64,000 nucleotides of DNA. Source: Haliotis cracherodii (lineage: Eukaryota). The stretch is from NCBI RefSeq assembly GCF_022045235.1, contig NW_027266308.1, forward strand, positions 39,122,001 to 39,186,000, given 5' to 3'. The position numbers and the translations under genes are program-made. The notes under the pieces are model-generated. The model made no database searches. It had not been told where the DNA came from and worked only from the letters and a program-made list of their open reading frames with translations. Positions 2,946 through 44,013 of the stretch are shown here, in pieces. The stretch's first letter is position 1; every line of letters starts with the position of its first letter.

Positions 2946-3011
2946 AGAGATGCCAAGATAAATGTAAAAAAAAACACCCCTACCCCCACCCGACCCCCAC
3001 CCCCAACCCAA

Positions 3012-3262
3012 ATGCCAGAGCCAACAGCGCCTCAAGAACCTTCCACTAGCGAAGCTACCTCAGACACAACACAAGACCGGAATACAGCTACTCCAGCAAC
3101 AGCAGCACCCACAACAGTTGACCCAACAGCCTGTGTCAATCCTGCCAGAGGTGAAGGGGGCAACGAGAAGGTCGGCAAATACATGCACGGCGTTCCACCG
3201 CTCTGCCTCAACACCACCGTCAGTGGCTCCACCTGCATGTTTGAGAACAACTACGTTCGACA
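3012..3262 (+). pseudogene. Orphan fragment of M4 protease gene (linker plus N-terminus of mature domain)
   Basis: Translates MPEPTAPQEP...ARGEGGNEKVGKYMHGVPPLCLNTTVSGSTCMFENNYV then stops; diverged copy of ~5409-5675. Confidence 0.85.
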
Positions 3263-3589
3263 CTAGAACCGGGATGATAAATGATAATTGAATAAAGTGT
3301 AACTGGTTTCCTTCTTGATGAAATGTTCTACACCGACCGGCACATAACCACAATATAATTAAAATAGTGATAGTATCAGACCACACAATACCAACACGTG
3401 GGGCATACCTCGGGGCCACTGATGAGAAAACCTCACCCTCATCCCTCTTAAATACAGTATCGTTTACCCTAATGTCTTCTGTAATGCAATATGTGGCTTC
3501 ACAAATTAAACCATAGCTTGGAGACATATATATTTATTAATATTAATAATTACTTTAGAGAGCAGGTGCCTCTTGTTGTATCGCCATGC

Positions 3590-3659
3590 TATATAAACCT
3601 CGGACACTGGTCAGTTGTCATCCTCCTCTTGGAATCGGATCCTTGACCCCACATCACAG
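3590..3659 (+). promoter_or_regulatory. TATA box (3590-3597) and non-coding first exon of M4 copy 1
   Basis: TATATAAA followed by Inr-like TCAGTT/TCATCC and donor CAG|GTAAAT at 3659/3660; the block is conserved in all three copies. Confidence 0.65.
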
Positions 3660-4103
3660 GTAAATGATTCTTGGTCAAGTTTAATTTATACGTCAATGAC
3701 ATCTGCTAAGTCTGTTTAATCTTACATACTGATGCTGCTAAAGAAGGCATTTCGCGTCCCTATGAATCGTCAGTGTGAAGTGTGAACCACTAAAACAGCA
3801 GCCGAAAGTTGCAAATGTAGGGTAAAGAAATTTAACGGACATTGGTTATATTAATACCAATTTATTCTTAAACTGGAGTTAATATATGAGCAACAGAAGA
3901 TTGAGTGTGTTAGTGATTGAATCATAGGTTTTTCGCACTCCTAAGGGACGCAACTGCGCATAGTGTTCATATTGTTCTTTCTCCATGTCCCAAATCTCTC
4001 AAATTTCCAGAATATCAACGTTCTACTTTTGAAACAAATACCGTAATTGTTCCCATTAAACACTTGCTTTGATGTTTGTTACAGAACAGTAGTACACGAC
4101 AGG

Positions 4104-6782
4104 ATGAATTTCTGCCTAATACAGCTCGGTAAGTTATCGCTCTTCTTGAAAACTAATTCTCAACTGTAATCGGGGGCTGGTATAGAATTGTTTTTGACAT
4201 GACGACGTCAAGGACACTGGAACACGACAAACGTGTACACGGATCGCGATAAGTGCATATAAAGCACTGAGTGGGTTGCAATTTCAAATGTTGCAAAGAC
4301 AAATTTATATTGTATGAAATAAGAAACGAACGATAGAATTGTGGTGCAAACGCTGTTGTGATCGCATTTCATTCCTGCTGATTTCTTCACATACAGAGAG
4401 GAGTATTTGATTGTAAAAGGACTAACAATTTAAACAATATGTCCTGAGGTAGCTGTGGTTTCATAATGAATACGTTTATCGTCACTAAGCCAAAGAAGGG
4501 AATTATTAAGATAACCTGCAATACACGGAGGTACTCTGTCTATTTCTCCTCGCTGATGGAACTGTCTTATGTTGGTATATACAGTAAACTACGTTTATAA
4601 GGAACACGCTTATAACGAACTGACGGATATAACGAACTTCCTTTTTTGTCCCGACTATATGCTGTAGTTATGCTGCAATATGCTTATAACGAACTACGGT
4701 TATAACGAACTAAAATGAGTGGTCCTGTTGAGTTCGTTACAACCGTAGTTTACTGTACATAGATATGTTTCTTTCATCTTTTATTCAGGTCTGCTGGCCT
4801 TGACCGTGTACAACATCGAGGCGGCACGTCGAGTTAACGTTGCAAGCGTCGCCCGACGTCTGAAATCTCGGACCGGCTACCACGGCACTCGTGCAGAGCT
4901 GTGTTCAGAGTTGGGTCTACATGGGAAGAACGCCATCGTACCCGGGACGTCTCTGAAAACAGCGCGAGGGAGGGTCAAGGAGCGTCTCCGACAGACCTAC
5001 GGGGGATTGGAAGTAGTGGGAGGGAACGTAGCCGCCGAAGTCAACCCCAGCCTCGGCTACACTGGCATTGTCAGCGGTGAAATCTACACATCGCTGGAGG
5101 AAGATATCCCCAACCCCGAAGACTGTGAGCAGTCACATGGCGCCGTCACGGGGGTAGCGCTAACGAAGGAGGGGGTCAAAGAGTCTCAAGTCAGTAATCT
5201 CAAGGTCGAGAAAAACGTCTACGTCAAGAAGAATGGCGTTGCTCGTCTGACCTATGAAATCAACTTCTTCTACATGAACGGTCACAAGCCAAGCCGTCCC
5301 TGTTACTTCATCGACGCCTGCGATCTAAGTGTAGTCCTTACGTTCAACAACATCCAGAACAAAGCTGTAGAGAGACGCCAAGACGAATGTCAAGAAAACA
5401 CCACCCCGATGCCAGAGCCAACAACGACTCCAGAAGAACCTACCACAATTGAAGCTACCACCGAGGACCAATGTGACGCAGACACAACACAAGGCCGGAA
5501 CACAGCTACTCCAGCAACAGCAGCACCCACAACTGCTGACCCAACAGCCTGTGTCAACCCTGCCAGAGGTGAAGGGGGCAACGAGAAAGTCGGCAAATAT
5601 GTGTACGGCGTTCCACCTCTCTGCCTCAACACCACCGTCAGTGGCTCCACCTGCACGCTGGAGAACGACTACGTCAAAGTGGTGGACTTGAAACAAGGTA
5701 CAAATAGGAACAACCGCGCCGCCTCCACCTACACTTGCGCCGATGGCTACGACGACGCTATCAACGGTGCCTACTCGCCTGTCCTGGATGCCATGAACTT
5801 TGGCACCAAGTCTGCCCGTATGTTTATCGAATGGTACAAGACAACTCCCCTCAACTTCAAGCCGGTTCTCTTCGTCCACTACAGCACAAACTACGAGAAC
5901 GCCTTCTGGGACGGCAGCAGCCTCACATTCGGCGATGGTCGAAACACTTTCTACCCACTGGTCAACCAGGATGTTGTATCTCACGAACTTGCCCACGGAG
6001 TCACAAACCAAAACTCCAACCTCATCTACGACGATCAATCTGGCGGCATCAACGAAGCCTTCTCAGACATAACAGGGGAGACAACAGAGATGTTTGCTCG
6101 TGGTTCTAACGACTGGCTTGTTGGATCTGAAATCTTTAAGAGCACCAGTGGAGCCCTGCGTTACTTTGAAAACCCTACAAGAGACGGCCGCTCCCTCAAA
6201 CACACCAGGGACTACAACGACAACGTCGATGTGCACTACAGCAGCGGCATCTTCAACCATGCCTTCTACCAGATCGTGAATGAAAACAACATGCCTATTA
6301 GACAGGCATTCGAGTGTTTCCTCCGCGCTAACATCATCTACTGGGGCCGTTCGACCACCTTTGAGGAAGGCGCCTGTGACGTCATGCGTGCTTGCTACGA
6401 CCTCGGCTACGATTATCTGATCGTGAAACGATCCTTCGAGGTGGTAGGAGTCACTTTCAGTGAGTGTGAGGAGCCGAGCTTCATGGAGACTGTGCCTGAG
6501 AACGAGATCCTAGCGGATCTCACTGTCTCCTCCTCCCATCGTCCCGTGTTTCTGCTGGAGCCTCCATCGGGGTCAACCCGCGTCATCGTAACGTCATCTG
6601 GACAGGGTCACTCCATCAACTTGGCCGTGTACCAAAACCTTGAATCTTCCACGCCGGTATCCATGGCAACAGGCGAGCTGACACACCAGCTTCCATCTGG
6701 ATCACCGTCGCTGTACCTGCGTGTATCTGCTGACGTTGTCAACGCCATCACTGATGTCACCGTTCGCGTCTCGTATGAATGA
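4104..6782 (+). CDS. Secreted M4 (thermolysin-family) zinc metalloprotease, pseudolysin/vibriolysin-like, copy 1; join(4104..4128,4789..6782), 672 aa
   Basis: Phase-1 GT-AG intron joins MNFCLIQL-G-LLALTVYNIEA (signal peptide); propeptide with RLRQTYGGLEVVGG (FTP-like) and KPSRPCYFIDA (PepSY-like); GGNEKVGKY, NGAYSP, NAFWDG, FGDG, HELAH (5982-5996), GGINEAFSD, ALRY, DVHYSSG; degenerate PPC-like C-terminus. Confidence 0.95.
4582..4755. mobile_element. Tc1/mariner(pogo)-type MITE in M4 copy 1 intron
   Basis: TA|CAGTAAACTACG...CGTAGTTTACTG|TA terminal inverted repeats with TA duplication; internal TATAACGAAC subrepeats. Confidence 0.9.
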
Positions 6783-7689: not shown

Positions 7690-8650
7690 GGCGTAAATCT
7701 TGTACAGGAGGATCTCGTGCCTGTATGCGCCGCCCCAGAATATCCTACACATTGCTGGCCAGAGTAGAGTCGTTATTGGCCCTCATGTAATTCACGGCTG
7801 CATACGAACGATGAGGCCAGGCATTTTCATCCATGTCCTGAGGTCGAGTAGCAAAAGGGTGGTTGCCAAAATAAGGAACGACGACTGGCCTCAAAATGGT
7901 GACCAAATCCAACCTGCAATCATGAGGGATACACTCCCACACCATCACCGAGCCCCCTCCGTATGCAACAGTCGGTTTAATGTTCCTGGGGCTTTAGGCC
8001 GTGTTCCGGTGCCTCCAAAGCTTCGTTCTTCCTTCGGGGACGTGGAGAAGAAAGCGACTTTCGTCTGACCAATGGATCCGTCTCGAAGTTCTCAGATTCC
8101 AGTTCTGTCGCGCAATACACCATGCTAAACGAGCAGTTTTGTGAAGATCTCTCAACGAGGGACGCTTTATGACTCGTCTAGGCATCAGTCCTGTTGCTTT
8201 AAGCCGGTTCCTGGTGGTTCTGGTGCTGAAACGACGATTGGGCAACCACAGCTGTTTCCGACGAGTACTTGTTAAAAAGGGTTCTCGGCGATGTGTCGTC
8301 ACAGGCGGCCTTCTGGATCTGGGACGGCCCTGTACATCAGCAGTCTGAGCATCTTGTGGCGTTTGATAATCGCCTTCGTGCCATGGACACACTGTCATGT
8401 GATAACTGTTCAAAACGGAGCTCAAGAAAGCAATTTTAACGTTCGGAAATACAGCTCTTAGAGATATTCGAGAGTAGCATGCTGCACGGGCATACCATGC
8501 ATGGCACGTGAGCTTTAGTCATGCATGACTGATTACATCATCTCGAGAAAACATAATTCTTTCCGTAATTATACCTTTTTATTACAAATATTGGGACCAA
8601 ACAATCATGAAATATATTAGGGTGTGCTTAACCTTTTTCTTTGTGTATAG
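7690..8650 (-). mobile_element. Degenerate Tc1-family transposon (transposase pseudogene)
   Basis: Minus-strand frames contain RIHWSDESRF (first catalytic Asp motif), SVMVW..I, MDENAWPHR (DNA.PH-like) and DILGRRI, with frameshifts and stops. Confidence 0.85.
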
Positions 8651-8769: not shown

Positions 8770-11700
8770 TTACTCTGACCACACAGATGTAACACGTTCA
8801 TGACTCTATTCATGAAAACACAGATGTAACATGTGTATGACTCTTTGACTGGACACACTGATGTAACACGTGTATGACTCTTTGACTGGACACAGAGATG
8901 TAACACGTGTATGACTCTTTCCCTAAACACACAGATGTAACACGTGTATGACTCTTTGACTGGACACAGAGATGTAACACGTGTATGACTCTTTCCCTGA
9001 ACACACAGATGTAACACGTGCATGATTCTATGCCTTGACACACACACATGAAACACGTGTATGACTGTATGCCTGGACACACACATGAAACACGTGCATG
9101 ACTCTTATGCCTGGACACAGGGGTGTAACACGTTCATGACTCTATTCATTAACACACAGATGAAACACGTGTATGAGTCTATGCCTGGACACACAGATGT
9201 ACCCGGTGCATGACTCTATGCCTGGACACACAGATGTAACACGTGTATAGCTCTATCTAACACGTGTATGACTAAGCCTCGACACACAGATGTAACACGT
9301 GCATGACTTTATACCTGGACACAACGATCTAACACGTGTATGACTCTATGCCTGGACACACACATAAACAAGTGCATGCCTCTATGCCTGGACACACAGA
9401 TGTAACACGTTCATGACTCTATTCATGAACACACATATATAACACATGTATGACTCTATGCCTGGACACACAGATGTACCACGTGTCTGACCCTATGCCT
9501 GGACACACAGATGTAACACGTGTATGGCTCTATCTACCACGTGTATGACTTAGCCTCGACACACAGATGTAACACGTGCATGACTCTATTCATGAACACA
9601 CAGATGTAACACGTGCATGACTCTATGCCTGGACACACAGGTGTAACACGTTCATGACTCTATTCATGAACCCACAGATGTAACTCGTGTATGACTCTTT
9701 GCCTGAACACACAGATGTAACAACTGTATGACTCCCTCCCTCGACACACAGATGTAACACGTGCATGACTCTACGCCTTGACACACAGGTGTACCACGTG
9801 CATGACTCTATGCCTGGACACACAGATGTACCACGTGTCTGACCCTATGCCTGGACACACAGATGTAACACGTGTATGGCTCTATCTACCACGTGTATGA
9901 CTTAGCCTCGACACACAGATGTAACACGTGCATGACTCTATTCATGAACACACAGATGTAACACGTGCATGACTCTATGCCTGGACACACAGGTGTAACA
10001 CGTTCATGACTCTATTCATGAACCCACAGATGTAACTCGTGTATGACTCTTTGCCTGAACACACAGATGTAACAACTGTATGACTCCCTCCCTCGACACA
10101 CAGATGTAACACGTGCATGACTCTACGCCTTGACACACAGGTGTACCACGTGCATGACTCTATGCCTGGACACACAGAAGTAACACGTGTATGACTTTAT
10201 TCCGAGACACACAGATGTAACACGTGTGTGATTCTATGCCTGGACACACAAATGTACCACGTTTATGACTAAGCCTGGCCCCACAGATGTAACACATGTA
10301 TGGCTCTATGCCGAGACACACAGATTTACCACGTGTACGACTCTATGCCTGGACACACACATAAACAAGTGTATGATTATATGCCTTGACACACAGATGT
10401 AACACGTTCATGACTCTATGCCTGGACACACAGGTGTAACACGTTCATGACTCTATTCATGAACCCACAGATGTAACACGTGTATTACTCTTTGCCTGAA
10501 CACACAGATGTAACACGTGTATGACTCCCTCCCTCGACACACAGATGTAACACGTGCATGACTCTACGCCTTGACACACAGGTGTACCACGTGCATGACT
10601 CTATGCCTGGACACACAGACGTAACACGTGTATGACTTTATTCCGAGACACACAGATCTAACACGTGTGTGATTCTATGCCTGGACACACAGATGTACCA
10701 CGTTTATGACTAAGCCTGGCCCCACAGATGTAACACATGTATGGCTCTATGTCGAGACACACAGATTTACCACGTGTACGACTCTATGCCTGGACACACG
10801 CATAAACAAGTGTATGACTCTATGCCTGGACACACAGATGTAACACGTTCATGAGTCTGTTCATGAACACACAGACGTAACACGTGTATGGCTCTATGTA
10901 CCACGTGTATGACTAAGCCTGGACACACAGATGCAACCCCTGTTTGGCTCTATGCCGAGACACACAGATGTAACACGTGTATGGCTCTTTGCCGAGACAC
11001 ACAGATGGACCACGTCTATGATTCTATGCCGAGACACACAGATGTACCATGTGCATGACTTAGCCTGGATGCACAGATGTAACACATTTATGACTCTATG
11101 CCGAGACACACAGATGTACCACGTGTATGACTAAGCCTGGACACACAGATGTAACACATGTATGGCTCTTTGCCGAGACACACAGATGGACCACGTCTAT
11201 GATTCTATGCCGAGACACACAGATGTACCATGTGCATGACTTAGCCTGGATGCACAGATGTAACACATTTATGACTCTATGCCGAGACACAAAGATGTTA
11301 CACGTGTATGACTAAGCCTGGATCCACAGATGTAACACATGTATGGCTCTATGCCGAGACACACAGATGTACCACGTGTATGACTTAGCCTGGATGCACA
11401 GATGTAACACAAGTATGGCTCTATGCCAAGACACACAGATGTAACATGTGTATGACTAAGCCTGGACACACAGATGTAACACGTGTATGGCTCTATGCCG
11501 AGACACACAGATGGACCATGTCTATGACTCTATGCCGAGACACACAGATGTAACACATGTATGGCGCTGTGCCTGGACACACAGATGTAACACGTTTATG
11601 GCGCTGTGCCTGGACACACAGATGTAACACGTGCATGACTCTATGCCTGGACACACAGATGTAACACGTGTATAGCTCTATCTAACACGTGTATGACTAA

Positions 11701-14700
11701 GCCTCGACACACAGATGTAACACGTGCATGACTTTATACCTGGACACAACGATCTAACAAGTGTATGACTCTATGCCTGGACACACACATAAACAAGTGC
11801 ATGCCTCTATGCCTGGACACACAGATGTAACACGTTCATGACTCTATTCATGAACACACATATATAACACATGTATGACTCTATGCCTGGACACACAGAT
11901 GTACCACGTGTCTGACCCTATGCCTGGACACACAGATGTAACACGTGTATGGCTCTATCTACCACGTGTATGACTTAGCCTCGACACACAGATGTAACAC
12001 GTGCATGACTCTATTCATGAACACACAGATGTAACACGTGCATGACTCTATGCCTGGACACACAGGTGTAACACGTTCATGACTCTATTCATGAACCCAC
12101 AGATGTAACTCGTGTATGACTCTTTGCCTGAACACACAGATGTAACAACTGTATGACTCCCTCCCTCGACACACAGATGTAACACGTGCATGACTCTACG
12201 CCTTGACACACAGGTGTACCACGTGCATGACTCTATGCCTGGACACACAGATGTACCACGTGTCTGACCCTATGCCTGGACACACAGATGTAACACGTGT
12301 ATGGCTCTATCTACCACGTGTATGACTTAGCCTCGACACACAGATGTAACACGTGCATGACTCTATTCATGAACACACAGATGTAACACGTGCATGACTC
12401 TATGCCTGGACACACAGGTGTAACACGTTCATGAGTCTGTTCATGAACACACAGACGTAACACGTGTATGGCTCTATGTACCACGTGTATGACTAAGCCT
12501 GGACACACAGATGCAACCCCTGTTTGGCTCTATGCCGAGACACACAGATGTAACACGTGTATGGCTCTTTGCCGAGACACACAGATGGACCACGTCTATG
12601 ATTCTATGCCGAGACACACAGATGTACCATGTGCATGACTTAGCCTGGATGCACAGATGTAACACATTTATGACTCTATGCCGAGACACACAGATGTACC
12701 ACGTGTATGACTAAGCCTGGACACACAGATGTAACACATGTATGGCTCTTTGCCGAGACACACAGATGGACCACGTCTATGATTCTATGCCGAGACACAC
12801 AGATGTACCATGTGCATGACTTAGCCTGGATGCACAGATGTAACACATTTATGACTCTATGCCGAGACACAAAGATGTTACACGTGTATGACTAAGCCTG
12901 GATCCACAGATGTAACACATGTATGGCTCTATGCCGAGACACACAGATGTACCACGTGTATGACTTAGCCTGGATGCACAGATGTAACACAAGTATGGCT
13001 CTATGCCAAGACACACAGATGTAACATGTGTATGACTAAGCCTGGACACACAGATGTAACACGTGTATGGCTCTATGCCGAGACACACAGATGGACCATG
13101 TCTATGACTCTATGCCGAGACACACAGATGTAACACATGTATGGCGCTGTGCCTGGACACACAGATGTAACACGTTTATGGCGCTGTGCCTGGACACACA
13201 GATGTAACACGTGCATGACTCTATGCCTGGACACACAGATGTAACACGTGTATAGCTCTATCTAACACGTGTATGACTAAGCCTCGACACACAGATGTAA
13301 CACGTGCATGACTTTATACCTGGACACAACGATCTAACAAGTGTATGACTCTATGCCTGGACACACACATAAACAAGTGCATGCCTCTATGCCTGGACAC
13401 ACAGATGTAACACGTTCATGACTCTATTCATGAACACACATATATAACACATGTATGACTCTATGCCTGGACACACAGATGTACCACGTGTCTGACCCTA
13501 TGCCTGGACACACAGATGTAACACGTGTATGGCTCTATCTACCACGTGTATGACTTAGCCTCGACACACAGATGTAACACGTGCATGACTCTATTCATGA
13601 ACACACAGATGTAACACGTGCATGACTCTATGCCTGGACACACAGGTGTAACACGTTCATGACTCTATTCATGAACCCACAGATGTAACTCGTGTATGAC
13701 TCTTTGCCTGAACACACAGATGTAACAACTGTATGACTCCCTCCCTCGACACACAGATGTAACACGTGCATGACTCTACGCCTTGACACACAGGTGTACC
13801 ACGTGCATGACTCTATGCCTGGACACACAGATGTACCACGTGTCTGACCCTATGCCTGGACACACAGATGTAACACGTGTATGGCTCTATCTACCACGTG
13901 TATGACTTAGCCTCGACACACAGATGTAACACGTGCATGACTCTATTCATGAACACACAGATGTAACACGTGCATGACTCTATGCCTGGACACACAGGTG
14001 TAACACGTTCATGACTCTATTCATGAACCCACAGATGTAACTCGTGTATGACTCTTTGCCTGAACACACAGATGTAACAACTGTATGACTCCCTCCCTCG
14101 ACACACAGATGTAACACGTGCATGACTCTACGCCTTGACACACAGGTGTACCACGTGCATGACTCTATGCCTGGACACACAGAAGTAACACGTGTATGAC
14201 TTTATTCCGAGACACACAGATGTAACACGTGTGTGATTCTATGCCTGGACACACAAATGTACCACGTTTATGACTAAGCCTGGCCCCACAGATGTAACAC
14301 ATGTATGGCTCTATGCCGAGACACACAGATTTACCACGTGTACGACTCTATGCCTGGACACACACATAAACAAGTGTATGATTATATGCCTTGACACACA
14401 GATGTAACACGTTCATGACTCTATGCCTGGACACACAGGTGTAACACGTTCATGACTCTATTCATGAACCCACAGATGTAACACGTGTATTACTCTTTGC
14501 CTGAACACACAGATGTAACACGTGTATGACTCCCTCCCTCGACACACAGATGTAACACGTGCATGACTCTACGCCTTGACACACAGGTGTACCACGTGCA
14601 TGACTCTATGCCTGGACACACAGACGTAACACGTGTATGACTTTATTCCGAGACACACAGATCTAACACGTGTGTGATTCTATGCCTGGACACACAGATG

Positions 14701-16415
14701 TACCACGTTTATGACTAAGCCTGGCCCCACAGATGTAACACATGTATGGCTCTATGTCGAGACACACAGATTTACCACGTGTACGACTCTATGCCTGGAC
14801 ACACGCATAAACAAGTGTATGACTCTATGCCTGGACACACAGATGTAACACGTTCATGAGTCTGTTCATGAACACACAGACGTAACACGTGTATGGCTCT
14901 ATGTACCACGTGTATGACTAAGCCTGGACACACAGATGCAACCCCTGTTTGGCTCTATGCCGAGACACACAGATGTAACACGTGTATGGCTCTTTGCCGA
15001 GACACACAGATGGACCACGTCTATGATTCTATGCCGAGACACACAGATGTACCATGTGCATGACTTAGCCTGGATGCACAGATGTAACACATTTATGACT
15101 CTATGCCGAGACACACAGATGTACCACGTGTATGACTAAGCCTGGACACACAGATGTAACACATGTATGGCTCTTTGCCGAGACACACAGATGGACCACG
15201 TCTATGATTCTATGCCGAGACACACAGATGTACCATGTGCATGACTTAGCCTGGATGCACAGATGTAACACATTTATGACTCTATGCCGAGACACAAAGA
15301 TGTTACACGTGTATGACTAAGCCTGGATCCACAGATGTAACACATGTATGGCTCTATGCCGAGACACACAGATGTACCACGTGTATGACTTAGCCTGGAT
15401 GCACAGATGTAACACAAGTATGGCTCTATGCCAAGACACACAGATGTAACATGTGTATGACTAAGCCTGGACACACAGATGTAACACGTGTATGGCTCTA
15501 TGCCGAGACACACAGATGGACCATGTCTATGACTCTATGCCGAGACACACAGATGTAACACATGTATGGCGCTGTGCCTGGACACACAGATGTAACACGT
15601 TTATGGCGCTGTGCCTGGACACACAGATGTAACACGTGTATGGCGCTATGCCGAGACACACAGATGTACCACGTCTATGACTCTATGCCGAGACACACAG
15701 ATGTACCACGTGTATGACTTAGCCTGGATGCACAGATGTAACACATGTATGGCTCTATGCCGAGACACACAGATGTAACATGTGTATGACTAAGCCTGGA
15801 CACACAGATGTAACACGTGTATGGCTCTATGCCGAGACACACAGATGGACCATGTCTATGACTCTATGCCGAGACACACAGATGTAACACGTGTATGGCG
15901 CTGTGCCTGGACACACAGATGTAACACGTTTATGGCGCTATGCCTGGACACACAGATGTAACATGTGTATGACTAAGCCTGGACACACAGATGTAACACG
16001 TGTATGGCTCTATGCCGAGACACACAGATGGACCATGTCTATGACTCTATGCCGAGACACACAGATGTAACACGTTTATGGCGCTATGCCTGGACACACA
16101 TATGTAACACGTTTATGGCGCTATGCCTGGACACACAGATGTAACACGTGTATGGCGCTATGCCTGGACACACATATGTGATATGTGTATTAGTAAGCCT
16201 GGACACACAGATGTAACATGTGTGTGACTCTACTCCTGGACACAAAGATGTAACACGTGCATGACCCTATGCCTGAACACACAGATGTAACACGTGAATG
16301 ACTCTATACCTGGACACACAGATGTAACACGTAGTAACACGTGCATGACCATATACCTGAACACGCAGGTGTAACACGTGCATGACTCTATACCTGGACA
16401 CATAGATGTAACACA
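8770..16415. repeat. 37-bp tandem satellite array 2 (~7.6 kb) with higher-order repeats
   Basis: Same monomer as array 1; diagnostic variant TATAGCTCTATCTAAC recurs at ~9246, 11671 and 13251; identical ORFs offset by 2425, 1580 and 4005 bp. Confidence 0.97.
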
Positions 16416-17022
16416 GGGTTAGGTCCCTTCTCCAAAACCCGCTGATGCGTTTCTCCACGTGTTTTATGTATTTCCTTGCAACTAGGTAGCTTAAAGACTT
16501 TTTAATATGATTTTATTTGTTTTCCCTTATATGATTGCCTTAAGCACTGATGGTTGATCGTAAGTTCACTCATTCAATATTTACCGATATTTTGCCTTTA
16601 CCCCAGATCAAATCTGTTTCGGCAGATACTCGAGACTGATCATTGTCTGACTTTGACGTATAATATTAAACTATCTAAATAGGCAGTAATTCGTAACTGA
16701 CAGCTTAAGCCATAAGGATTCAGCAGCAAGATGTATGCGAACTGTAAGATGTTGAGAACAGTTTACTATACCTGCATTTACAGTCACTTGAGATTTATTC
16801 ATTACGTTCTTTTTATTGTATTGATTAAAAGATGGTACTTGTTACCCTGCTTGGCGTTTGGCATTTGGGGGATAAATCAAAGACAGGTCGGCTCATATAT
16901 ACTGTGTCCGAGTAGGACATCCATCTCAAACAGCGGCAAGGTATCCCAGTGGACTAGCACTATAAAACAGACACTAGACCGGACTAGTTCAAGCAAGCAC
17001 AAACAGAAAGATGACCCCCCAG

Positions 17023-17135
17023 CACACACTACTGCTGACCCAACAGCCCGTGTCAACCCTGCCAGAGGTGAAGGGGGCAACGAGAAAGTCGGCAAATGGC
17101 TCCACCGGCATGTTTGACAACAAGTACGTTCGACA
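17023..17135 (+). pseudogene. Further-eroded orphan M4 fragment upstream of copy 2
   Basis: TTADPTARVNPARGEGGNEKVGK, then a deletion, then the same TACGTTCGACACTAGAACCGGG junction as at ~3252. Confidence 0.8.
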
Positions 17136-17427
17136 CTAGAACCGGGATGATTAATGATAACTGAATAAAGCGTTCTACACCGACAATATAATTAAAGTAG
17201 TGATAGTATCAGAAGACAGAAATATACTACACAATACCAACACGTGGGCATACCTCGGGGCCACTGATGAGAAAACCTCACCCTCATAATTAGAGTATCG
17301 TTTACCCTAATGTCTTCTGTAATGCAATATGGGACTTAACAATTAAAACCATAGCTTGGGGACATATATATTTATTAATATTAATAATTACTTTAGAGAG
17401 CAGGTGCCTCTTGTTGTATCGCCATGC

Positions 17428-17497
17428 TATATAAACCTCGGACACTGGTCAGTTGTCATCCTCCTCTTGGAATCGGATCCTTGTCCCCACATCACAG
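17428..17497 (+). promoter_or_regulatory. TATA box and non-coding first exon of M4 copy 2
   Basis: TATATAAA 17428-17435; canonical donor CAG|GTAAGT at 17497/17498. Confidence 0.65.
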
Positions 17498-17940
17498 GTA
17501 AGTGGCTCTTGGTCAAGTTTAACTCATACATCAATGACATCTGCTTAGTCTGTTTAATCTTACATACTGATGCTGCTAAAGAAGGCATTCCGCGTCCCTA
17601 TGAATCGTCAGTGTGAAGTGTGAACCACTAAAACAGCAGCAGAAAGTCGCATATGCAGGGTAAAGAAATTTAACGGACTTTGCTTCTATTAATAACAATT
17701 TATTCTTAAACTGGAGTTAATGTATGAGCTACACAAGAGTGAGTGTGTTAGTGATTGAATCATAGGTCTTTTGCACTCCTAAGGGACGCAACTGCGCATA
17801 GTGTTCATATTGTTCTTTCTCCATGTACCTAATCTCTCAAATTTCCAGAATATCAACGTTCTACTTTTGAAACAAATACCGTAATTGTTCCCATTAAACA
17901 CTTGCTTTGATGTTTGTTACAGAACAGTAGACACGACAGG

Positions 17941-20371
17941 ATGAATTTCTGCCTAATACAGCTAGGTAAGTTATCGCTCTTCTTGAAAACTAATTCTAAA
18001 CTGTAATCGGGGGCTTGTATAGAATTGTTTTTGACATGACGACGTCAAGGACTCTGGAACAAGACAAACGTGTACACGGATCGCGAATAGTGCACATAAG
18101 GTACTGAATAGATTGCAATTTCAAATGTTGCAAAGACAAATTTATACTGTATGACAGTAAAATTCCCGTTTGCGTTGTGTTTTTATTCTTCGAAATAAGA
18201 CACGAAAGATAGAAATGTGGTGCACACGCTGTTGTGATCACATTTCATTCCTGTTGATTTCTTTACATGCAGAGAGAGGTTTTTAATTGTAAAAGGGCAA
18301 ACAATTCAAACAATATGTCCTGAGGTAGCTGTGGTTTCATAATGAATACGTTTATCGTCACTATACCTTTTATTCAGGTCTGCTGGCGCTGACAGTGTAC
18401 AACATCGAGGCGGCACGTCGAGTCAACGTTGCTAACGTCGCCCGACGTCTGAAATCTCGGACCGGCTACCACAGCACTCGTGCAGAGCTGTGTTCAGAGT
18501 TGGGTCTACACGGGAAGAACGCCATCGTGCCCGGGACGTCTTTGAAAACAGCGCGAGGGAGGGTCAAGGAGCGTCTCCGACAGACCTACGGGGGATTGGA
18601 AGTAGTGGGAGGGAACGTAGTCGCCGATGTCAACCCCAGCCTCGGCTACACTGGCGTCGTCAGCGGTGAAATCTACACATCACTGGAGGAAGATATCGCC
18701 AACCCCGAAGACTGTGAGCAGTCACATGGCGTCGTCACGGGGGTAGCGCTCACGAAGGAGGGGGTCAAAGAGTCTCAAGTCAGTAATCTCAAGGTCGAGA
18801 AAAACGTCTACGTCAAGAAGAATGGCGTTGCTCGTCTGACCTATGAAATCAACTTCTTCTACATGAACGGTCACAAGCCAAGCCGTCCCTGTTACTTCAT
18901 CGACGCCTGCGATCTAACTGTAGTCCTTACGTTCAACAACATCCAGAACAAAGCTGTAGAGAGACGCCAAGACGAATGTCAAGAAAACACCACCCCGATG
19001 CCAGAGCCAACAACGACTCCAGAAGAACCTACCACAATTGAAGCTACCACCGAGGACCAATGTGACGCAGACACAACTCAAGGCCGGAACACAGCTACTC
19101 CAGCAACAGCAGCACCCACAACTGCTGACCCAACAGCCTGTGTCAACCCTGCCAGAGGTGAAGGGGGCAATGAGAAGGTCGGCAAATACGTGTACGGCGT
19201 TCCACCTCTCTGCCTCAACACCACCGTCAGTGTCTCCACCTGCACGCTGGAGAACGAATACGTCAAAGTGGTGGACTTGAAACAAGGTACAAATAGGAAC
19301 AACCGCGCCGCCTCCACCTACACTTGCGCCGATGGCTACGACGACGCTATCAACGGTGCCTACTCCCCTGTCCTGGATGCCATGAACTTTGGCACCAAGT
19401 CTGCCCGTATGTTTATCGAATGGTACAAGACAACTCCCCTCAACTTCAAGCCGGTTCTCTTCGTCCACTACAGCACAAACTACGAGAACGCCTTCTGGGA
19501 CGGCAGCAGCCTCACATTCGGCGATGGTCGAAACACTTTCTACCCACTGGTCAACCAGGATGTTGTATCTCACGAACTTGCCCACGGAGTCACAAACCAA
19601 AACTCCAACCTCATCTACGACGATCAATCTGGCGGCATCAACGAAGCCTTCTCAGACATAACAGGGGAGACAACAGAGATGTTTGCTCGTGGTTCCAACG
19701 ACTGGCTTGTTGGATCTGAAATCTTTAAGAGCACCAGTGGAGCCCTCCGTTACTTTGAAAACCCTACAAGAGACGGCCGCTCCCTCAAACACACCAGGGA
19801 CTACAACGACAACGTCGATGTGCACTACAGCAGCGGCATCTTCAACCATGCCTTCTACCAGATCGTGAATGAAAACAACATGCCTATTAGAGAGGCATTC
19901 GAGTGTTTCCTCCGCGCTAACATCATCTACTGGGGCCGTTCGACCACCTTTGAGGAAGGCGCCTGTGACGTCATGCGTGCTTGCTACGACCTCGGCTACG
20001 ATTATCTGATCGTGAAACGATCCTTCGAGGTGGTAGGAGTCACTTTCAGTGAGTGTGAGGAGCCGAGCTTCATGGAGACTGTGCCTGAGAACGAGATCCT
20101 AGCGGATCTCACTGTCTCCTCCTCCCATCGTCCCGTGTTTCTGCTGGAGCCTCCATCGGGGTCAACCCGCGTCATCGTAACGTCATCTGGACAGGGTCAC
20201 TCCATCATCTTGGCCGTGTACCAAAACCTTGAATCTTCCACGCCGGTATCCATGGCAACAGGCGAGCTAACACACCAGCTTCCATCTGGATCACCGTCGC
20301 TGTACCTGCGTGTATCTGCTGACGTTGTCAACGCCATCACTGACGTCAACGTTCGCATTTCGTATGAATGA
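17941..20371 (+). CDS. M4 zinc metalloprotease copy 2; join(17941..17965,18378..20371), 672 aa
   Basis: Same exon structure and all catalytic motifs as copy 1 (HELAH, NEAFSD, DVHYSSG); intact ORF. Confidence 0.95.
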
Positions 20372-20856: not shown

Positions 20857-21116
20857 GTGTGTATATTACGTGAAATATTCTTGATCGCGACGTTAAACCC
20901 AATTTCAATCCACCTATACCTGGACACACAGAAGTTACACATCTAGAATTCTTTGCCTGTCTAGGCATAGGTGGGATCATGAAATAGAAATGTTATAATC
21001 AGTCGTCAGAAGAAAGATCAGCTTTTAAAAATGACTGCCAGAGATAGAACGGTTTCGAAACACAAAACATACCCCCCCCCACACACACACACCACCCCCA
21101 CCCCCACCCCCACCCC

Positions 21117-21637
21117 ACGTGTATGACTCTATGTCTGGACACACAGATGAAACACGTGATTGACTCTGTGCCTGGTCACACAGATGAAACACGTGTATGA
21201 CTGTATGCCTGGACACACAGGTGTAACACGTGATTGACTCTATGCCTGGTCACACAGATTAAACACGTGTATGACTGTATGCCTGGACACACAGATGAAA
21301 CACGTGCATGACTCTATGCCTGGTCACACAGATGAAACACGTGTATGAGTCTATTCCTGGACACACATATGAAACACGTGTATGACTGTATGTCTGGACA
21401 CACAGATGTAACACGTGTATGAGTCTATTCCTGGACACACAGATGTAACACATGCATGACTCTATGCCTGGACACACATGTATAACACGTGTATGAGTCT
21501 TTGCCTGGACACACATGTATAACACGTGTATGAGTTTATGCCTGGACACACAGATGTAACACGTGTATGACTGTGTGCCTGGACACACATGTGTAACACG
21601 TATATGACTGTATGCCTGGACACAGAGATGTAACACA
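21117..21637. repeat. 37-bp tandem satellite array 3
   Basis: Same monomer and orientation as arrays 1 and 2. Confidence 0.95.
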
Positions 21638-23128: not shown

Positions 23129-25422
23129 TCATTCATACGAGATGCGAACGTTGACGTCAGTAATGGCGTTGGCTACGTCAGCAGATACACGCAGGTACAG
23201 CGACGGTGATCCAGATGGAAGCTGGTGTGTTAGCTCGCCTGTTGCCATGGATACCGGCATGGAAGATTCAAGGTTGTGGTACACGGCCAAGTTGATGGAG
23301 TGACCCTGTCCAGATGACGTAACGATGACGCGGGTTGACCCCGATGGAGGCTCCAGCAGAAACACGGGACGATGGGAGGAGGAGACAGTCAGATCCGCTA
23401 GGATCTCGTTCTCAGACACAGTCTCCATGAAGCTCGGCTCCTCACACTCACTGAAAGTGACTCCTACCACCTCGAAGGATCGTTTCACAACCAGATAATC
23501 GTAGCCGAGGTCGTAGCAAGCACGCATGACGTCACAGGCGCCTTCCTCAAAGGTGGTCGAACGGCCCCAGTAGATGATGTTAGCGCGGAGGAAACACTCG
23601 AATGCCTCTCTAATTGGCATGTTGTTTTCATTCACGATCTGGTAGAAGGCATGGTTGAAGATGCCGCTGCTGTAGTGCACATCGACGTTGTCGTTGTAGT
23701 CCCTGGTGTGTTTGAGGGAGCGGCCGTCTCTTGTAGGGTTTTCAAAGTAACGCAGGGCTCCACTGGTGCTCTTAAAGATTTCAGATCCAACCAGCCAGTC
23801 GTTAGAACCACGAGCAAACATCTCAGTTGTCTCCCCTGTTATGTCTGAGAAGGCTTCGTTGATGCCGCCAGATTGATCGTCGTAGATGAGGTTGGAGTTT
23901 TGGTTTGTGACTCCGTGGGCAAGTTCGTGAGATACAACATCCTGGTTGACCAGTGGGTAGAAAGTGTTTCGACCATCGCCGAATGTCAGGCTGCTGCCGT
24001 CCCAGAAGGCGTTCTCGTAGTTTGTGCTGTAGTGGACGAAGAGAACCGGCTTGAAGTTGAGGGGAGTGGTCTTGTACCATTCGATAAACATACGGGCAGA
24101 CTTGGTGCCAAAGTTCATGGCATCCAGGACAGGGGAGTAGGCACCGTTGATAGCGTCGTCGTAGCCATCGGCGCAAGTGTAGGTGGAGGCGGCGCGGTTG
24201 TTCCTATTTGTACCTTGTTTCAAGTCCACCACTTTGACGTAGTCGTTCTCCAGCGTGCAGGTGGAGCCACTGACGGTGGTGTTGAGGCAGAGAGGTGGAA
24301 CGCCGTACACATATTTGCCGACCTTCTCGTTGCCCCCTTCTCCTCTGGCAGGGTTGACACAGGCTGTTGGGTCAGCAGTTGTGGGTGCTGCTGTTGCTGG
24401 AGTAGCTGTGTTCCGGCCTTGTGTTGTGTCTGCGTCACATTGGTCCTCGGTGGTAGCTTCAATTGTGGTAGGTTCTTCTGGAGTCGTTGTTGGCTCTGGC
24501 ATCGGGGTGGTGTTTTCTTGACATTCGTCTTGGCGTCTCTCTACAGCTTTGTTCTGGATGTTGTTGAACGTAAGGACTACACTTAGATCGCAGGCGTCGA
24601 TGAAGTAACAGGGACGGCTTGGCCTGTGACCGTTCATGTAGAAGAAGTTGATTTCATAGGTCAGACGAGCAACGCCATTCTTCTTGACGTAGACGTTTTT
24701 CTCGACCTTGAGATTACTGACTTGAGACTCTGTGACCCCCTCCTTCGTTAGCGCTACCCCAGTGACGACGTCATGTGACTGCTCACAGTCCTCGGGGTTG
24801 GGGATATCTTCCTCCAGTGATGTGTAGATTTCACCGCTGACAACGCCAGTGTAACCGAGGCTGGGGTTGACGTCAGCGGCTACGTTCCCTCCCACTACTT
24901 CCAACCCCCCATAGGTCTGTCGGAGACGCTCCTTGACCCTCCCTCGCGCTGTTTTCAAAGACGTCCCGGGCACGATGGCGTTCTTCCCGTGTAGACCCAA
25001 CTCTGAACACAGCTCTGCACGTGTGCTGTGGTAGCCGTACCGAGATTTCAGACGTCGGGCGACGCTTGCAACGTTAACTCGACGTGCCGCCTCGATGCTG
25101 TACACGGTCAGCGCCAGCAGACCTGAAAAAAGGTGCAAAAATACACATTAACAAATCTATTTATGTTAATGTAAGACAGTTCCATCTCCAAGCAGAAAAC
25201 AGTCAGAGTATATCCGTGTAATGCGGAATAACTTAATATAACATTAAATGAATCCGAAACATCGGCATTGCGACGATCAAATATTCATTATCCAACCCTT
25301 ACTCCAACAATTCTTGTCGCGAATTCTTTTTGTGGAGACGAAACATACAAATACCAGTTTATAATTATTTCTTAAAAAGAGCGATTTTATTACTTACCTA
25401 GGTGTATAAGCCGGAAATTCAT
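23129..25422 (-). CDS. M4 zinc metalloprotease copy 3 (inverted); complement(join(23129..25122,25398..25422)), 672 aa
   Basis: Mini-exon MNFRLIHL-G with GTAAGT donor, acceptor TTTTTCAG at 25123; catalytic motifs intact. Confidence 0.95.
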
Positions 25423-36700: not shown

Positions 36701-39700
36701 TTAGGTTTTTTTCCCATTGAGACTCAGATATACAGTATCGTCAATATTAGACACTTTTCAGCCAAATCTTGAATTTCTGTTTATGTAGAAATCAAACATG
36801 TTTGCATGTTTTAAGTATATGGTGTAGGGAAGAATGTAGATTAAATAAGGATCCAGTGAAACATATCGGCGTTAGGCGTGTTGGTGTGTCTTCGTACCTG
36901 TTGCTTCCTGGAGTATTAGGTATATATTTTACACGCTATGGTCTATGTTTACTCATGCTGAGTATTTTGTCTGTAATATAGGTAGTGACGTCAACATGGA
37001 TAACGACAGACACACTGACCGGTTCTGTCTGTCTGTAAACAAGTCCAAACAGAACGATACAACTCTGCTCTGGTCCCTTTGTACCCACAGCCTGAAGGCA
37101 GTTTGTCAAGTCGGTATGTACCTCTTTTCATAACAGGACGTTAGGAAGCCCAGTGGTTAAAGCGTTCACTCGTCATCCCGAGCCCGGGTTCGATTCTCCA
37201 CTTGGGTACAATTTCTTAAGCCCATTTCTGGTGTTCCCAGCAGTGATATGGCTGGAATATTGCAAACAGAAAAGTGGCGATATACTCATTCACTCACTCA
37301 CCATTCGTAACAAATGAGATGTAAACCCTTCACTTATATTTTCTAGGCAGAACGGGGCCTCCATGCTGACAACTGATGGGATTCCGCGCACGATAGGTCC
37401 CAAATACCCATGTTTGTTTAAAATTGGCATCCCGTGGTTCGAGTGTGTGACACGTCAGTTTCTGTGTCATTATAACCTTACATGATGGTCATGCAAACCA
37501 CTATAAAAATCGAAAATACCATCTTACATTTATGTTTTTTTCCCCCTCATAAATATTAAAATATATATTGTCCTCATTGTCAAACCTAGACCTAATGTCG
37601 TTACAAGCACAGTGCTATTTTGGTTGCCAATGTTAGTGACGACCTTTCTTTTTATTTCTTTTGTATTTCAGGTCCATTTTTTCATTCTTTGCTTTATCCA
37701 CTATGAAACACTGTTTGCCATCAACAGGAACACAGAGCACGAGCTTTTCTACAAGCACCACGACATCTCATCCGTCAGCGTCGACATCATCACCACCACT
37801 TCCTACAGAGGCGGGGACAACACTAGAGGCAACTTCGTCCTCCTCGGCCCATGCCACGTCCACCAGTACCAACGCTTCCAGGGACTACCAGGGGCTTGAT
37901 ACTGGTAAGAGTAGTTGTGTATGCCTCTTAGTAGCATTTTAATACTCATCTGCTCGTCCCAGGGAGGCATGTGTTTTTCATTGTAGAAATGGCTTTTGGA
38001 TTATTTAGGAAAAAAATGTGACAGTTCAGCTTTGTTGGAATTTTAATAATAGTTTTAACTGAAGGTATGCACGTTATAAGTGCATGTGAATGTTGTTTTA
38101 GCTTACCCCCAGAGGGGCGGGGCGAAACAGAGGTAATTTGGCATTATTGATTTAAGCGACTTCTTCTCTGGAACTAAGAGATAAATACCAACCATATTTT
38201 GTTGGAAGCATTCTCCGGTGGTGAGGATTCTAAATTGTACAAATGGAGGGTCTGGAAAAGTTGTTTTCGATTTTATTTTATACCGCTTTTCATAATAGTT
38301 CAGCAATATTACAACAATATCTTATTGAAAGAATGTTCGACCTCTGCGTGTTTATATACTAGTATTGCGTAGAAATTGATAGTCAGTTATATAGAGTTGA
38401 CGTCCTTCTTCCCCAAGCCCTGTGTTAAAAGCCGACTGGTGGGGAGCACGTTGTGCACAGTTTCACCAGACAGCGTGTCCCACCGTACCCTGGCGGCTTA
38501 TGATGTTGTTCATGCAGTCAGCCTTTGCCCAAGACTTGATTATGTGTAGGCAACATACGCCCACTCACTCAACATTACATCTACTGTGCGATATGTTTCA
38601 GGGACTCTCATAGGCATCTCTATCGCCTGTGTAGTCATCCTCGCCCTGACGATTGCCGCTATTGTGATCATGAAAAGGTACGTTTAACGCCAAACGAAGA
38701 CTACACATCTCCTGTGTATCATGTAGTTACGCAACACTCGCAACAGCAGTGAACTTGATTACATCTAATGAACGGAAGACGGTATCAATTAACATGAAAT
38801 GTCTATCCTCCAAAACAATAACGACCCGTGAAGATTCCGGGGTAGAATAGGTCTTCAGCAACCCGTAAAAGGTGACTATGCTTGTCGTAAAAGTCGACTA
38901 ACCGGATCGGGTGATCAGGCTCGATGACTTGGTTGATGCATGTCATCGATCCCAGTTGGTGGATCGACGCTCATGATCTTAATCACTGGATTGTCTGGTC
39001 CAGACTTGATTATTTACAGACCGCCGTCATATAGCTGGAATATTGCTGAGTGCGGCGTTAAACAACAAACCAACCAACCAAAACAATTACATGACTAATC
39101 TTCAAAGGAACGTCAGTGCGTTGCCATTTTTTTATAGCTCTACACTTAAATACTTGAAATGTAACCGTTACGTAATCATAAAGAAATATAAAAAAAATAT
39201 AAATATTCATTACGTTTTGCAAAACGACCTCTCTCTGTTCAGTAATGTAATTCGATGACGGATGTCCCCCATTAATTACAAGCCTTATAATATTTCTACT
39301 AATTCTATATTTCTATTAATGAACCTAACACTGCCTTCCAGACACAGACTGCTTTTCTTTGAAGCTAAACCAACGACTGACACGACAAACAACGTCGGAT
39401 ATGACAACAGGGCGTATGCCACGATGTTTGAAGATGATCACATCTACGACACCCTGTCAGAACACCAAGGGAGACACGGTCAATCCCACCTTCCCGTCGC
39501 CACCGTCAGACCCATCTTACACATCTATATGAACGACCCACAGTTGGACAAGGACGAAGGATACAATGTCCTATCACAGTGCAGCTCTGTCGTTCCTTCT
39601 TCAGTAAAACCTTATGATCATGTTTTAGTAGGTGGCGATGGCACAGTAGTTGGATCCGATTACGATAGAGTGATAATCACAAACGACCCACCTAAATTCA

Positions 39701-40089
39701 ACAGCAATGTTTGTCTGGATGATAATGGGGATGAAAATGAATATCTCAGTCTTAAGGACGACCTAGTGCCAGTGGATGATCGCAAAGCTGATCCTGGGGA
39801 ATTTGACAGAGCAGACGACAGGAATCACACGATCCCGGATGCAGGAACGAACTTTAACCAACACCAGAACAGAAGGGTTGCTGAAGCTGTTTATCAAAAC
39901 ATCTCCCAAATTAGACAGTCCGTCAACGACGATGGCGAGATTAGGACGGGGAACGTCAACGGTAACGTGATGACGTCGCATGATGGATGCTACTGTAGCA
40001 TTGGACCTGCGTCGGAAACAGATATCGCCATGAACAAAGAAGATGGACGTCAACCTATCCATCAATCACCAGCAGCAACAGATGCATGA
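30788..40089 (+). CDS. Type-I membrane protein with C-type-lectin-like and WSC domains and Tyr-motif-rich tail, ~686 aa; exons 30788-30896, 33308-33505, 34070-34206, 34975-35107, 35820-35954, 36317-36532, 36982-37113, 37728-37904, 38602-38677, 39342-40089
   Basis: All introns GT-AG with compatible phases (total 2061 nt). CTL-like WWDASQKGC..YWIG..WTW; WSC-like CHLHCGKGYTRIGLSGKACYC..CSGNYNEWCG..VSVY; second CTL-like YWIGLRR..W and C..W..C..C; S/T stalk; TM TLIGISIACVVILALTIAAIVIM then KR. First exon and exon-5 acceptor are least certain. Confidence 0.8.
31171..31338 (-). mobile_element. Second copy of the Tc1/pogo-type MITE, one end truncated
   Basis: Reverse complement of 4582-4755, ending CGTAGTTTACTG|TA. 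Confidence 0.85.
32549..32835 (-). mobile_element. tRNA-derived SINE family B, full length
   Basis: Flanked by TSD TCAACATTGAG; (ACTC)n tail. Confidence 0.92.
32993..33236 (+). mobile_element. SINE-like family A
   Basis: Family consensus starting GACCCGTGAAGATCCGGG. Confidence 0.88.
34302..34733 (-). mobile_element. 5'-truncated L1/Tx1-type LINE fragment
   Basis: Minus-strand translation PFWIEFFKW...LMNYLLLLAKYIVYRCK resembles an L1/Tx1 ORF2 C-terminus; A-rich tail with AATAAA; 15-bp TSD ATAATCAGGAAGATT at 34287 and 34734. Confidence 0.8.
35290..35566 (-). mobile_element. tRNA-derived SINE family B, full length
   Basis: 14-bp TSD GTGGATTATTAATG. Confidence 0.92.
37148..37300 (+). mobile_element. 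Short tRNA-derived SINE (family D); head also at ~31512, tails at ~52325 and ~58730
   Basis: AGTGGTTAAAGCGTTC A-box region, GGTTCGATTC B-box, GCTGGAATATTGC, (ACTC)n tail. Confidence 0.65.
38822..39080 (+). mobile_element. SINE-like family A
   Basis: Family consensus. Confidence 0.88.
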
Positions 40090-42493: not shown

Positions 42494-43637
42494 TCACTCC
42501 GATGACAGCGAGGGCTTCATCTTAGAAGGGCTGAGGGCATTTGGGAGAACAATAAGGTCCCTCCTCTCAACGTCCGCCGATACAGCCAGAGTGTCTAAGA
42601 ACCCTATAGCTTGGTGTCTCAGTAAGATAGAGGCGGCTCGACTTACAAATAAAACTGCTTTTACTCGACTCATCTCTGACGCTAGTTCGAGAGCTACTTC
42701 TGGATTCAGACAATTGCAGAAAGAGAGGTCGATTCTTGAAGGAAGAACCCTCTTGATATCAGCAACCCACAGTACCTCGAAGTCTCCATCAGCCTGGACG
42801 AAGCTACGCATACAGGATACAAGTATCTCTGTCTTGAGATGGAGAAGGTCATCTGCTGTCACGGAGCTGACGAACAGCTGCAGACGACATTCAACTGGAA
42901 CATAAAATCTCTGCCAGCTGACCATCGATATATATTCGTCGTTTGCACCACGACGAATCCGTTGTCTTAGCAACGTCCTCTTCTGGCGAGATTCTCGATC
43001 AGTTGCGTAAGATTCAGGCACGCTTTCTTTTAAAGGTTCACTTGGCGTCTTTTGAAGATTCGACAAGGATATTGGCGATTTCGTTGGGGATTCAGTTAGA
43101 CTGCTTTCACTTTTAGACGAGTTCAAAGATGAGTTTAGGTCATCATTTGTTCGTCGTTTCAGCTTGAGAGCATAGAACTTCGAATACCACATCTGCATAT
43201 CCAGCCATACCGTTTTGGAATTGGTCAAACTTCCTCTCGGGTAGAGCGGACCCCACACATTTCGAACAGGAATATATTTGCTGTACTTCTGAAGATCGGG
43301 TATGCGAATGTCAAGCGGATAACAAGTTGATTCTGTACTTTCATCACAGGCGGTGCAGCTGTGTGATCTGAGGTGATCGCTGGTTTGACCAACGTCAGAG
43401 CCCGACGCGCTTTGGTTGACATTCCCGGAATGTGCTTTCAGGAGATCACCGATATTGTTCAGCTTACATATTCCGCTTATGCGCTTACGTTTCTTGCAGA
43501 GCTTCTCTTTTCCTCTTTTGAAGACGGATTTTATTTTACCTAATGCTTTGGATGTCTTAACCGTTTTGACAATGTCTTGTCCCGGGCCGCCTGGTTTAGC
43601 TGTCTTCGCAAAATCACTATTATCACTGCCGCGTGAC
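42494..43637 (-). CDS. Large terminal coding exon (~380 aa) of an uncharacterised gene
   Basis: The frame of track ORF 42494..43258 stays open upstream to an acceptor AATTTCAG at 43638 (SRGSDNSDFAKTAKPGGPG...); AATAAA on minus near 42134; upstream exons not resolved. Confidence 0.6.
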
Positions 43638-44013
43638 CTGAAATTGAATTAAACATTGTTATGGCTCTCCAATGGTTAACGGGGAGATACATGCATCAGT
43701 ACATATAACACCACATTAAAATTAGGTTTGCGAAAATTGAGTCACGTCTATTTATACATGTTATACAAAACTTGCTGTTTATAAAGTTTAGGTCTGTTGA
43801 GGTTTCTCGGGAGAAAACAAATATACATCTCCTAGGCAACTGAGGAACCCACAATTTAATATCCTGGTATGTATCTGAGATCTTTTAAGAAGGGATAGTT
43901 TTTTCGGTAACTGTTTCAAAACACGCAATTTCTTCTGTAAAGAGAACATCTTCCCGAGGCATTTGAGTTAACTGACTATAAAAGTCCAGTTTCCACCCTT
44001 GCCGAACTAGGTA

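Follow-up and report, generated by a model that had tools for sequence, protein, structure and literature searches.

Promoter and spliced leader exons of a vibriolysin-like M4 protease gene in abalone, probably acquired stepwise after an ancient transfer

On a 64,000-nucleotide stretch of the Haliotis cracherodii genome (RefSeq assembly GCF_022045235.1, contig NW_027266308.1, positions 39,122,001 to 39,186,000; hereafter the window, to which coordinates refer unless a contig is named), copy 1 of an M4 protease gene is preceded by a promoter and two spliced leader exons. Our preferred reading, to which we assign a probability of about 0.7, is that a single ancient transfer brought the family in from a marine proteobacterium, and that the promoter and leader exons, which would enable transcription and export of the enzyme, were acquired stepwise rather than as one cassette.

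Structure of the gene and its neighbours

The first-pass annotation of this DNA had described a TATA box, a non-coding exon, a mini-exon and a 1994-nt body exon in each of three gene copies, and the positions were borne out in all three. In copy 1, on the forward strand, the TATA box is TATATAAA at 3590-3597. It lies in a conserved proximal and core promoter (3457..3631) that aligns with the promoter of a C34 sister gene at a score of 64, against a maximum of 36 in 500 shuffles. The TATA-to-initiator spacing is equal in the two genes, the bodies of which are separated by a dS of 0.65. Transcription of copy 1 probably starts at an initiator-like A at 3620, 30 nt past the TATA box. Exon 1 is non-coding and spans 3620..3659, with its donor shown after 3659 and its 5' end placed at this putative start. 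The 5' UTR intron that follows (intron 1, 3660..4084, 425 nt) has no counterpart in four C34 sister genes. Exon 2 (4085..4128) consists of 19 nt of UTR and 25 coding nt from the ATG at 4104, encodes the first half of the signal peptide and ends in phase 1. The length and phase proposed for this coding part (25 nt, phase 1, 4104-4128) therefore hold, whereas the wording "ATG plus 25" does not, the ATG being counted among the 25. Intron 2 (4129..4788, 660 nt, phase 1) splits Gly9, and the body exon (4789..6782, 1994 nt) encodes the remainder of the signal peptide, an FTP/PepSY-type propeptide, a Thr/Pro-rich linker, the M4 catalytic domain and a C-terminal beta domain. Given that the first in-frame Met within the body is residue 171, a protein begun in the body exon would be without its signal peptide and the greater part of its propeptide. 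A dispersed short repeat occupies about 4579-4747 of intron 2 and recurs at 31171-31341; it is not found in copies 2 and 3 and is very abundant in the sequencing runs.

Copy 2 lies on the forward strand (17428..20371), with its TATA box at 17428, exon 1 ending at 17497, exon 2 at 17923-17965 and the body at 18378-20371. Copy 3 lies on the reverse strand (23129..26064), with its TATA box at 26064, exon 1 reaching 25995, an exon 2 of 51 nt at 25448-25398 and the body at 25122-23129. When spliced in silico, all three copies give a coding sequence of 2019 nt, and the products of copies 1-3 match the RefSeq abalone proteins P0121, P0126 and P0123 letter for letter, so that the true start is already present in the public annotation. 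A fourth C45 copy adjoins the window just beyond its edge.

Copies 1 and 3 are 92% identical from TATA to donor, as against 57% and 32% in the two introns. The dS between their bodies is 0.06, yet identity across the 5' regions is about 78%, and a second species has both leader types. Given this pattern, the body exons of copies 1 and 3 have likely been homogenised by gene conversion. Just 5' of the copy 1 promoter, a relic of an M4 body on the forward strand (3006..3256; 84% identical, with a stop) covers the linker and the start of the catalytic domain, and its tail is also seen upstream of copy 2 at about 17020-17150. The same 37-nt minisatellite is found between every neighbouring pair of M4 copies (717-2336, 8780-16332 and 21116-21636), and may have promoted the unequal crossing-over by which the array arose. 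The window also contains a Tc1/mariner-type transposase fragment on the minus strand at 7994-8518 (Pfam HTH_Tnp_Tc3_2), and long open frames without a Pfam match at 39259-40089, 42494-43648 and 53313-53969, which are probably exons of adjoining host genes.

Splicing of the leader exons

Splicing was checked in contigs from five of eight runs guessed to be RNA, none of which is recorded as RNA. The contigs that bear a joint come from two studies of related species that differ by 3-4%, rather than from H. cracherodii itself, and the short sides of their joints measure 25-29 letters, which is under the 30-31 of the alignment tool. Aligned to copy 2, a contig of run X1 joins 17963 to 18376 and skips 17964-18375, which has GT..AG ends; the same joint is also visible against copy 1. 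A contig of run X4 matches exon 1 over its final 25 letters and stops matching exactly at the copy 2 donor at 17497. Past this donor come 49 other letters, in keeping with the 51-nt exon 2 of copy 3, and then the body. In run X3, a contig has a loose end that is readable as exon 2. Run X7 showed no joint, and a contig of run X2 begins within the body, at 4842, which we took as neutral. The predicted junctions are thus confirmed to the extent that both introns are removed in contigs of probable RNA runs, in related species, in genes of the copy-3 type and with short flanks. Because all three joint contigs resemble copy 3, the junctions of copy 1 are taken solely from orthology and RefSeq. Together these data support leader exons that are real and spliced.

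The M4 family in the abalone genome

A genome search for M4 genes gave 18 matches, which resolve into 13 intact loci, spread over two contigs, and five pieces of three broken copies. One coding plan is common to all 13 intact loci, namely a first coding exon that measures 25-55 nt and ends in phase 1, followed by a single body exon. After splicing, 11 of the 13 are identical to RefSeq proteins and the other two differ at 5 residues. The signal-peptide intron falls inside the hydrophobic stretch in every intact locus, 9-11 residues upstream of the predicted cleavage site, and its phase-1 position splits a Gly codon in eight of them; its length varies between less than 300 nt and 28 kb. Four C34 genes have about 190 nt of promoter in common with the window genes but no UTR intron, and their ATG stands 40-52 nt past the TATA box. 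Since these genes keep the promoter without the intron, the UTR intron does not belong to a fixed cassette. In two other C34 genes, an acceptor stands immediately before the ATG.

Some members of the family stand out in other respects. A distant paralog on C45, at about 41573300-41608600 (L028, L040, L041), has two alternative phase-1 first exons, which lie 19.6 and 35.3 kb upstream and each yield a different start of the signal peptide; the annotation of three other Haliotis species includes both isoforms. In the C34 paralog L025 (P0016), 8-residue Thr/Ser/Glu repeats form a long array in the linker, the length of which varies between species (881 vs 978 aa). Protein P0382 is the GenBank "metalloprotease" AJF36072.1 of Haliotis discus hannai, an ortholog of paralog L026, and no accompanying paper was found in the open-access literature.

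The body exon is bacterial-like and intronless, as had been proposed, and two observations might be read as signs of contamination or of chance splice-like motifs. The GC content of the body is 54% against about 41% in its surroundings, and the bare TATA-plus-donor pattern is enriched weakly, with 9 occurrences in the window compared with a shuffle mean of 2.2 and a maximum of 8 (200 shuffles). Opposed to these are the chromosome-scale contigs (one of 70.6 Mb), the 13 intact loci, relatives in four Haliotis species and orthologs across three mollusc classes, the spliced contigs and a dN/dS of about 0.19. A broken C12 copy provides a natural control, in that this pseudogene has lost TATA box, donor and acceptor alike. 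On the strength of contigs, loci, orthologs, splicing, selection and pseudogene decay we consider this explanation refuted, its likelihood being negligible, in agreement with the earlier argument against contamination.

The encoded protease

Pfam assigns the product to Peptidase_M4 (94.8 bits, cut-off 22.4) and Peptidase_M4_C (119.5 bits, cut-off 24.4), and its FTP match of 20.1 lies just below the cut-off of 21. The zinc and catalytic residues of copy 1 are H407-E408-xx-H411, E431 and H491, and the HExxH motif, the third zinc ligand (Glu in EAFSD) and the catalytic His are kept in all 13 intact loci. A predicted model with a pLDDT of 86.7 was matched by Foldseek to the vibriolysin MCP-02, with an rmsd of 1.0 Å over 299 residues at 48% identity; the TM score was 0.97 for the mature enzyme and 0.81 for the propeptide (E 2e-10). 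By fold, the C-terminal beta domain matched collagenase PPC domains weakly (E 5e-3), with neither a Pfam match nor a PDB sequence match to a PPC domain in this part. Residues 200-258 form a Thr/Pro-rich linker that is disordered in the model and is not present in the aligned bacterial rows. Judged by these sequence and model comparisons, the gene product is a secreted-type, vibriolysin-like M4 zinc protease. The M4 genes are under purifying selection, with dN/dS between 0.13 and 0.20 in all 15 pairs among six bodies.

The predicted signal peptide has a Kyte-Doolittle value of 2.4 over nine residues from residue 5, and it ends in an A-x-A-like motif that aligns with bacterial signals. These features would suit a putative cleavable signal peptide of 20 residues that would be built by splicing.

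Phylogeny and age of the transfer

Among the matches listed, named M4 relatives occur in gastropods (Aplysia, Elysia, Lottia, Patella, Pomacea, Babylonia, Lymnaea and Gigantopelta), bivalves (Solemya, Tegillarca, Pecten, Mercenaria and Sinanodonta) and cephalopods (Octopus and Argonauta). The remaining named matches are all bacterial (three protein searches; best 120, 94 and 120 rows). No named non-mollusc eukaryote is among the matches listed, although animal-like relatives outside the molluscan clade do exist. Such animal-like M4 proteins beyond the molluscan clade are P0330, P0384-P0401, P0278, P0304, P0206 and P0024, some of which form multi-gene arrays. They have the same N-terminal motif, and several sit many to one megabase-sized contig.

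Trees were built from the catalytic domain (374 and 90 rows) and with the propeptide included (64 and 42 rows), by quick searches without bootstrap, leaving out redundant Aeromonas rows and partial domains. The molluscan rows form one clade with an SH-aLRT of 98. With the propeptide included, molluscan and animal-like rows form one clade (SH-aLRT 100 and 99) placed among proteobacterial vibriolysins; with the catalytic domain alone, the P0024 group is placed among bacteria, apart from the other animal-like rows. Identity between the animal clade and proteobacterial rows is about 45-50% in the catalytic domain, and the clade is far closer to these rows than to Bacillus thermolysin or fungal M36. 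In the same trees, in which the root is weak, no bacterial sister group of the animal clade appeared with support. Comparison at this level suggests that the molluscan M4 genes likely stem from one ancient transfer from a marine proteobacterial source.

Intronless gene bodies can also arise through retroposition, and the family could accordingly be an old eukaryotic one, inherited vertically or from a much earlier transfer, lost widely, and represented here by a retroposed body that gained its 5' exons in the ordinary way. The animal-like relatives beyond the molluscan clade, which push the origin back, would suit such a history, as would the want of a specific bacterial sister group. Yet every named match outside the molluscs is bacterial among the best 120, 94 and 120 rows listed, the animal clade is nested in proteobacterial rows at the identity given above, and an intron-rich parent is absent among the 18 matches in this genome. 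We therefore regard this history as improbable, and retain the transfer from a proteobacterium.

A single clade of Haliotis paralogs was rejected (p-AU 8.7e-6, 42 rows), whereas a single clade of all named gastropod rows was not (p-AU 0.20, 42 rows). In the best tree, the paralogs would have duplicated before gastropods and bivalves split; given the p-AU of 0.20, this order is that of the best tree and is not demonstrated. Because all 13 intact loci have the same plan and the Haliotis paralogs are not one clade, the signal-peptide intron is no younger than the paralogs, which split among deep gastropod lineages, and perhaps predates the gastropod-bivalve split. Both the deep gastropod and the gastropod-bivalve splits date to roughly 450-500 million years ago. 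The event is thus ancient and family-wide, and is not peculiar to the three copies in the window.

In ten proteins (P0161, P0175, P0176, P0186, P0188, P0191, P0196, P0197, P0201 and P0202), similarity to a Mercenaria protein ends just before residue 65. This hints at an extra propeptide intron near residue 65 in about ten clam-like, genome-derived proteins, where intron positions were guessed from protein N-termini by a residue pattern that is common by chance.

Origin of the leader exons

The leader had been interpreted as an expression cassette grafted onto the gene as a unit. This interpretation is not supported, in view of the four C34 sisters, which have the same promoter but no UTR intron, and no host donor was found. 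A search for host genes that share the leader exons had been proposed as a check; in a nucleotide search of the genome, the promoter with exon 1 and, separately, exon 2 each matched the four C45 copies only. Nor does the mini-exon appear to supply a signal peptide that the bacterial gene lacked. Bacterial vibriolysins possess a signal peptide of their own, as the cited part of one report describes (PMC9785129), and it is collinear with the half encoded by the body exon. Consistent with this, animal and bacterial N-terminal profiles gave a local alignment that starts within the signal peptide and extends across the propeptide. Over the first 110 residues it has a probability of 99 and an E of 7e-19, driven mostly by the propeptide, and given that any two signal peptides align somewhat, it is no proof of descent of the signal peptide.

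The bacterial gene might instead have landed 3' of a host promoter and first coding exon, with a cryptic acceptor in the bacterial signal sequence creating a chimera. Such a true graft would explain leader exons that end in phase 1, which the portions consulted of two studies describe as typical near animal signal peptides (PMC1626468, PMC8001218). The paralog that uses two first exons implies that such exons are exchangeable, and the aphid rlpA gene, in the published account as far as it is drawn on here, is a case of this kind (PMC2662799). The promoter, for its part, is host-derived under any reading. Set against this, the donor family was already equipped with signal peptides, and the intron lies 9-11 residues ahead of the cleavage site, so that the exon holds just half a signal peptide. 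Furthermore, the UTR exon is not family-wide, and a donor of the leader exons was not found, in a nucleotide search that is blind to so old an event. We consider a true graft unlikely, though a better candidate than an old eukaryotic gene. The simplest history, as far as sequence comparison can tell, is that the donor N-terminus was kept and was split by an early phase-1 intron, although the capture of the gene by a host first exon would produce an identical arrangement.

Discussion

These data allow us to propose how the gene was built and how it may work. The donor gene would have brought its own Sec signal, of which the C-terminal half and the cleavage site would be retained on the body exon. 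A single phase-1 intron may have been gained early within the hydrophobic stretch; from then on, the short first exon would have been free to be swapped or duplicated, as in the paralog with two first exons. The UTR intron would have been gained or lost later, by lineage. In the present-day gene, TATA-driven transcription would begin at about 3620 and splicing would assemble the 20-residue signal peptide, which would direct the preproenzyme into the ER. Removal of the propeptide could proceed by autoprocessing, as in vibriolysins, or by cleavage at dibasic sites, and the mature enzyme would act extracellularly, most likely in the digestion of food or of mucus or matrix protein.

A wider version of this history can be put forward tentatively, at somewhat less than even odds. 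It holds that one vibriolysin transfer to early animals predated the molluscs, that the family is still in use in snails, clams and octopuses and in one or more other animal groups, and that the body gained hardly any introns over about half a billion years, with a swappable phase-1 first exon assuming control of secretion and of the choice of promoter.

Molluscs hold an expanded and selected protease family, likely of this origin. It is of the same type as the proteases secreted by Vibrio pathogens of shellfish, and matches to "vibriolysin" or "virulence metalloprotease" in shellfish data can be host genes. The 13 paralogs, one with two first exons and four without the UTR intron, form together with a pseudogene a natural series in which the gain of a promoter and introns by a bacterial gene can be studied. 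The main texts of the open-access literature yielded no paper on M4 genes of molluscs or on the transfer of these genes, and within that scope a transfer of M4 into animals is apparently undescribed.

The closest known systems are the bacterial vibriolysins, which in the sources as cited likewise combine a signal peptide, an FTP/PepSY-type propeptide and an M4 domain with HExxH, Glu and His; they include MCP-02 of Pseudoalteromonas (3nqx/3nqz), PlM4P (7ecc), LasB of Pseudomonas and VemA of Vibrio (PMC9785129). Unlike these, the abalone gene resides on an animal chromosome, has spliceosomal introns, and encodes a Thr/Pro-rich, Cys-flanked linker and dibasic propeptide sites. Cysteine content is also higher, at 1.7% in the animal proteins and 1.0% in bacterial vibriolysins (20 and 21 proteins).

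Introns confined to the 5' end had been presented as what a transferred gene should show. Such cases are known, and in the account of the aphid genes, to the extent cited, ldcA has one 5' intron with the entire frame on the second exon, while in rlpA a eukaryotic signal peptide is encoded by exon 1 (PMC2662799). By the same account, the rlpA intron coincides with the domain border and the added exon carries the entire signal peptide, whereas the abalone intron lies inside a signal peptide of the donor family, and the exon plan of the abalone genes is a far older one. For phase-1 introns close to signal peptides, the relevant passages of two studies name insertion at proto-splice sites or exon shuffling as the source; the excess described there is around the cleavage site, while the abalone intron is 9-11 residues upstream (PMC1626468, PMC8001218). 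The alpha-amylase of Basidiomycetes, an old bacterial transfer of a secreted hydrolase, presents the opposite pattern to the abalone M4 genes in the section of the report cited, with introns soon everywhere but in the signal peptide (PMC3584928). Because this gene reverses the arrangement, introns restricted to the 5' end are not to be expected of transferred genes in general. Compared with these systems, the abalone leader exons are ordinary ones, already contained in RefSeq models, and constitute a new example of a known pattern.
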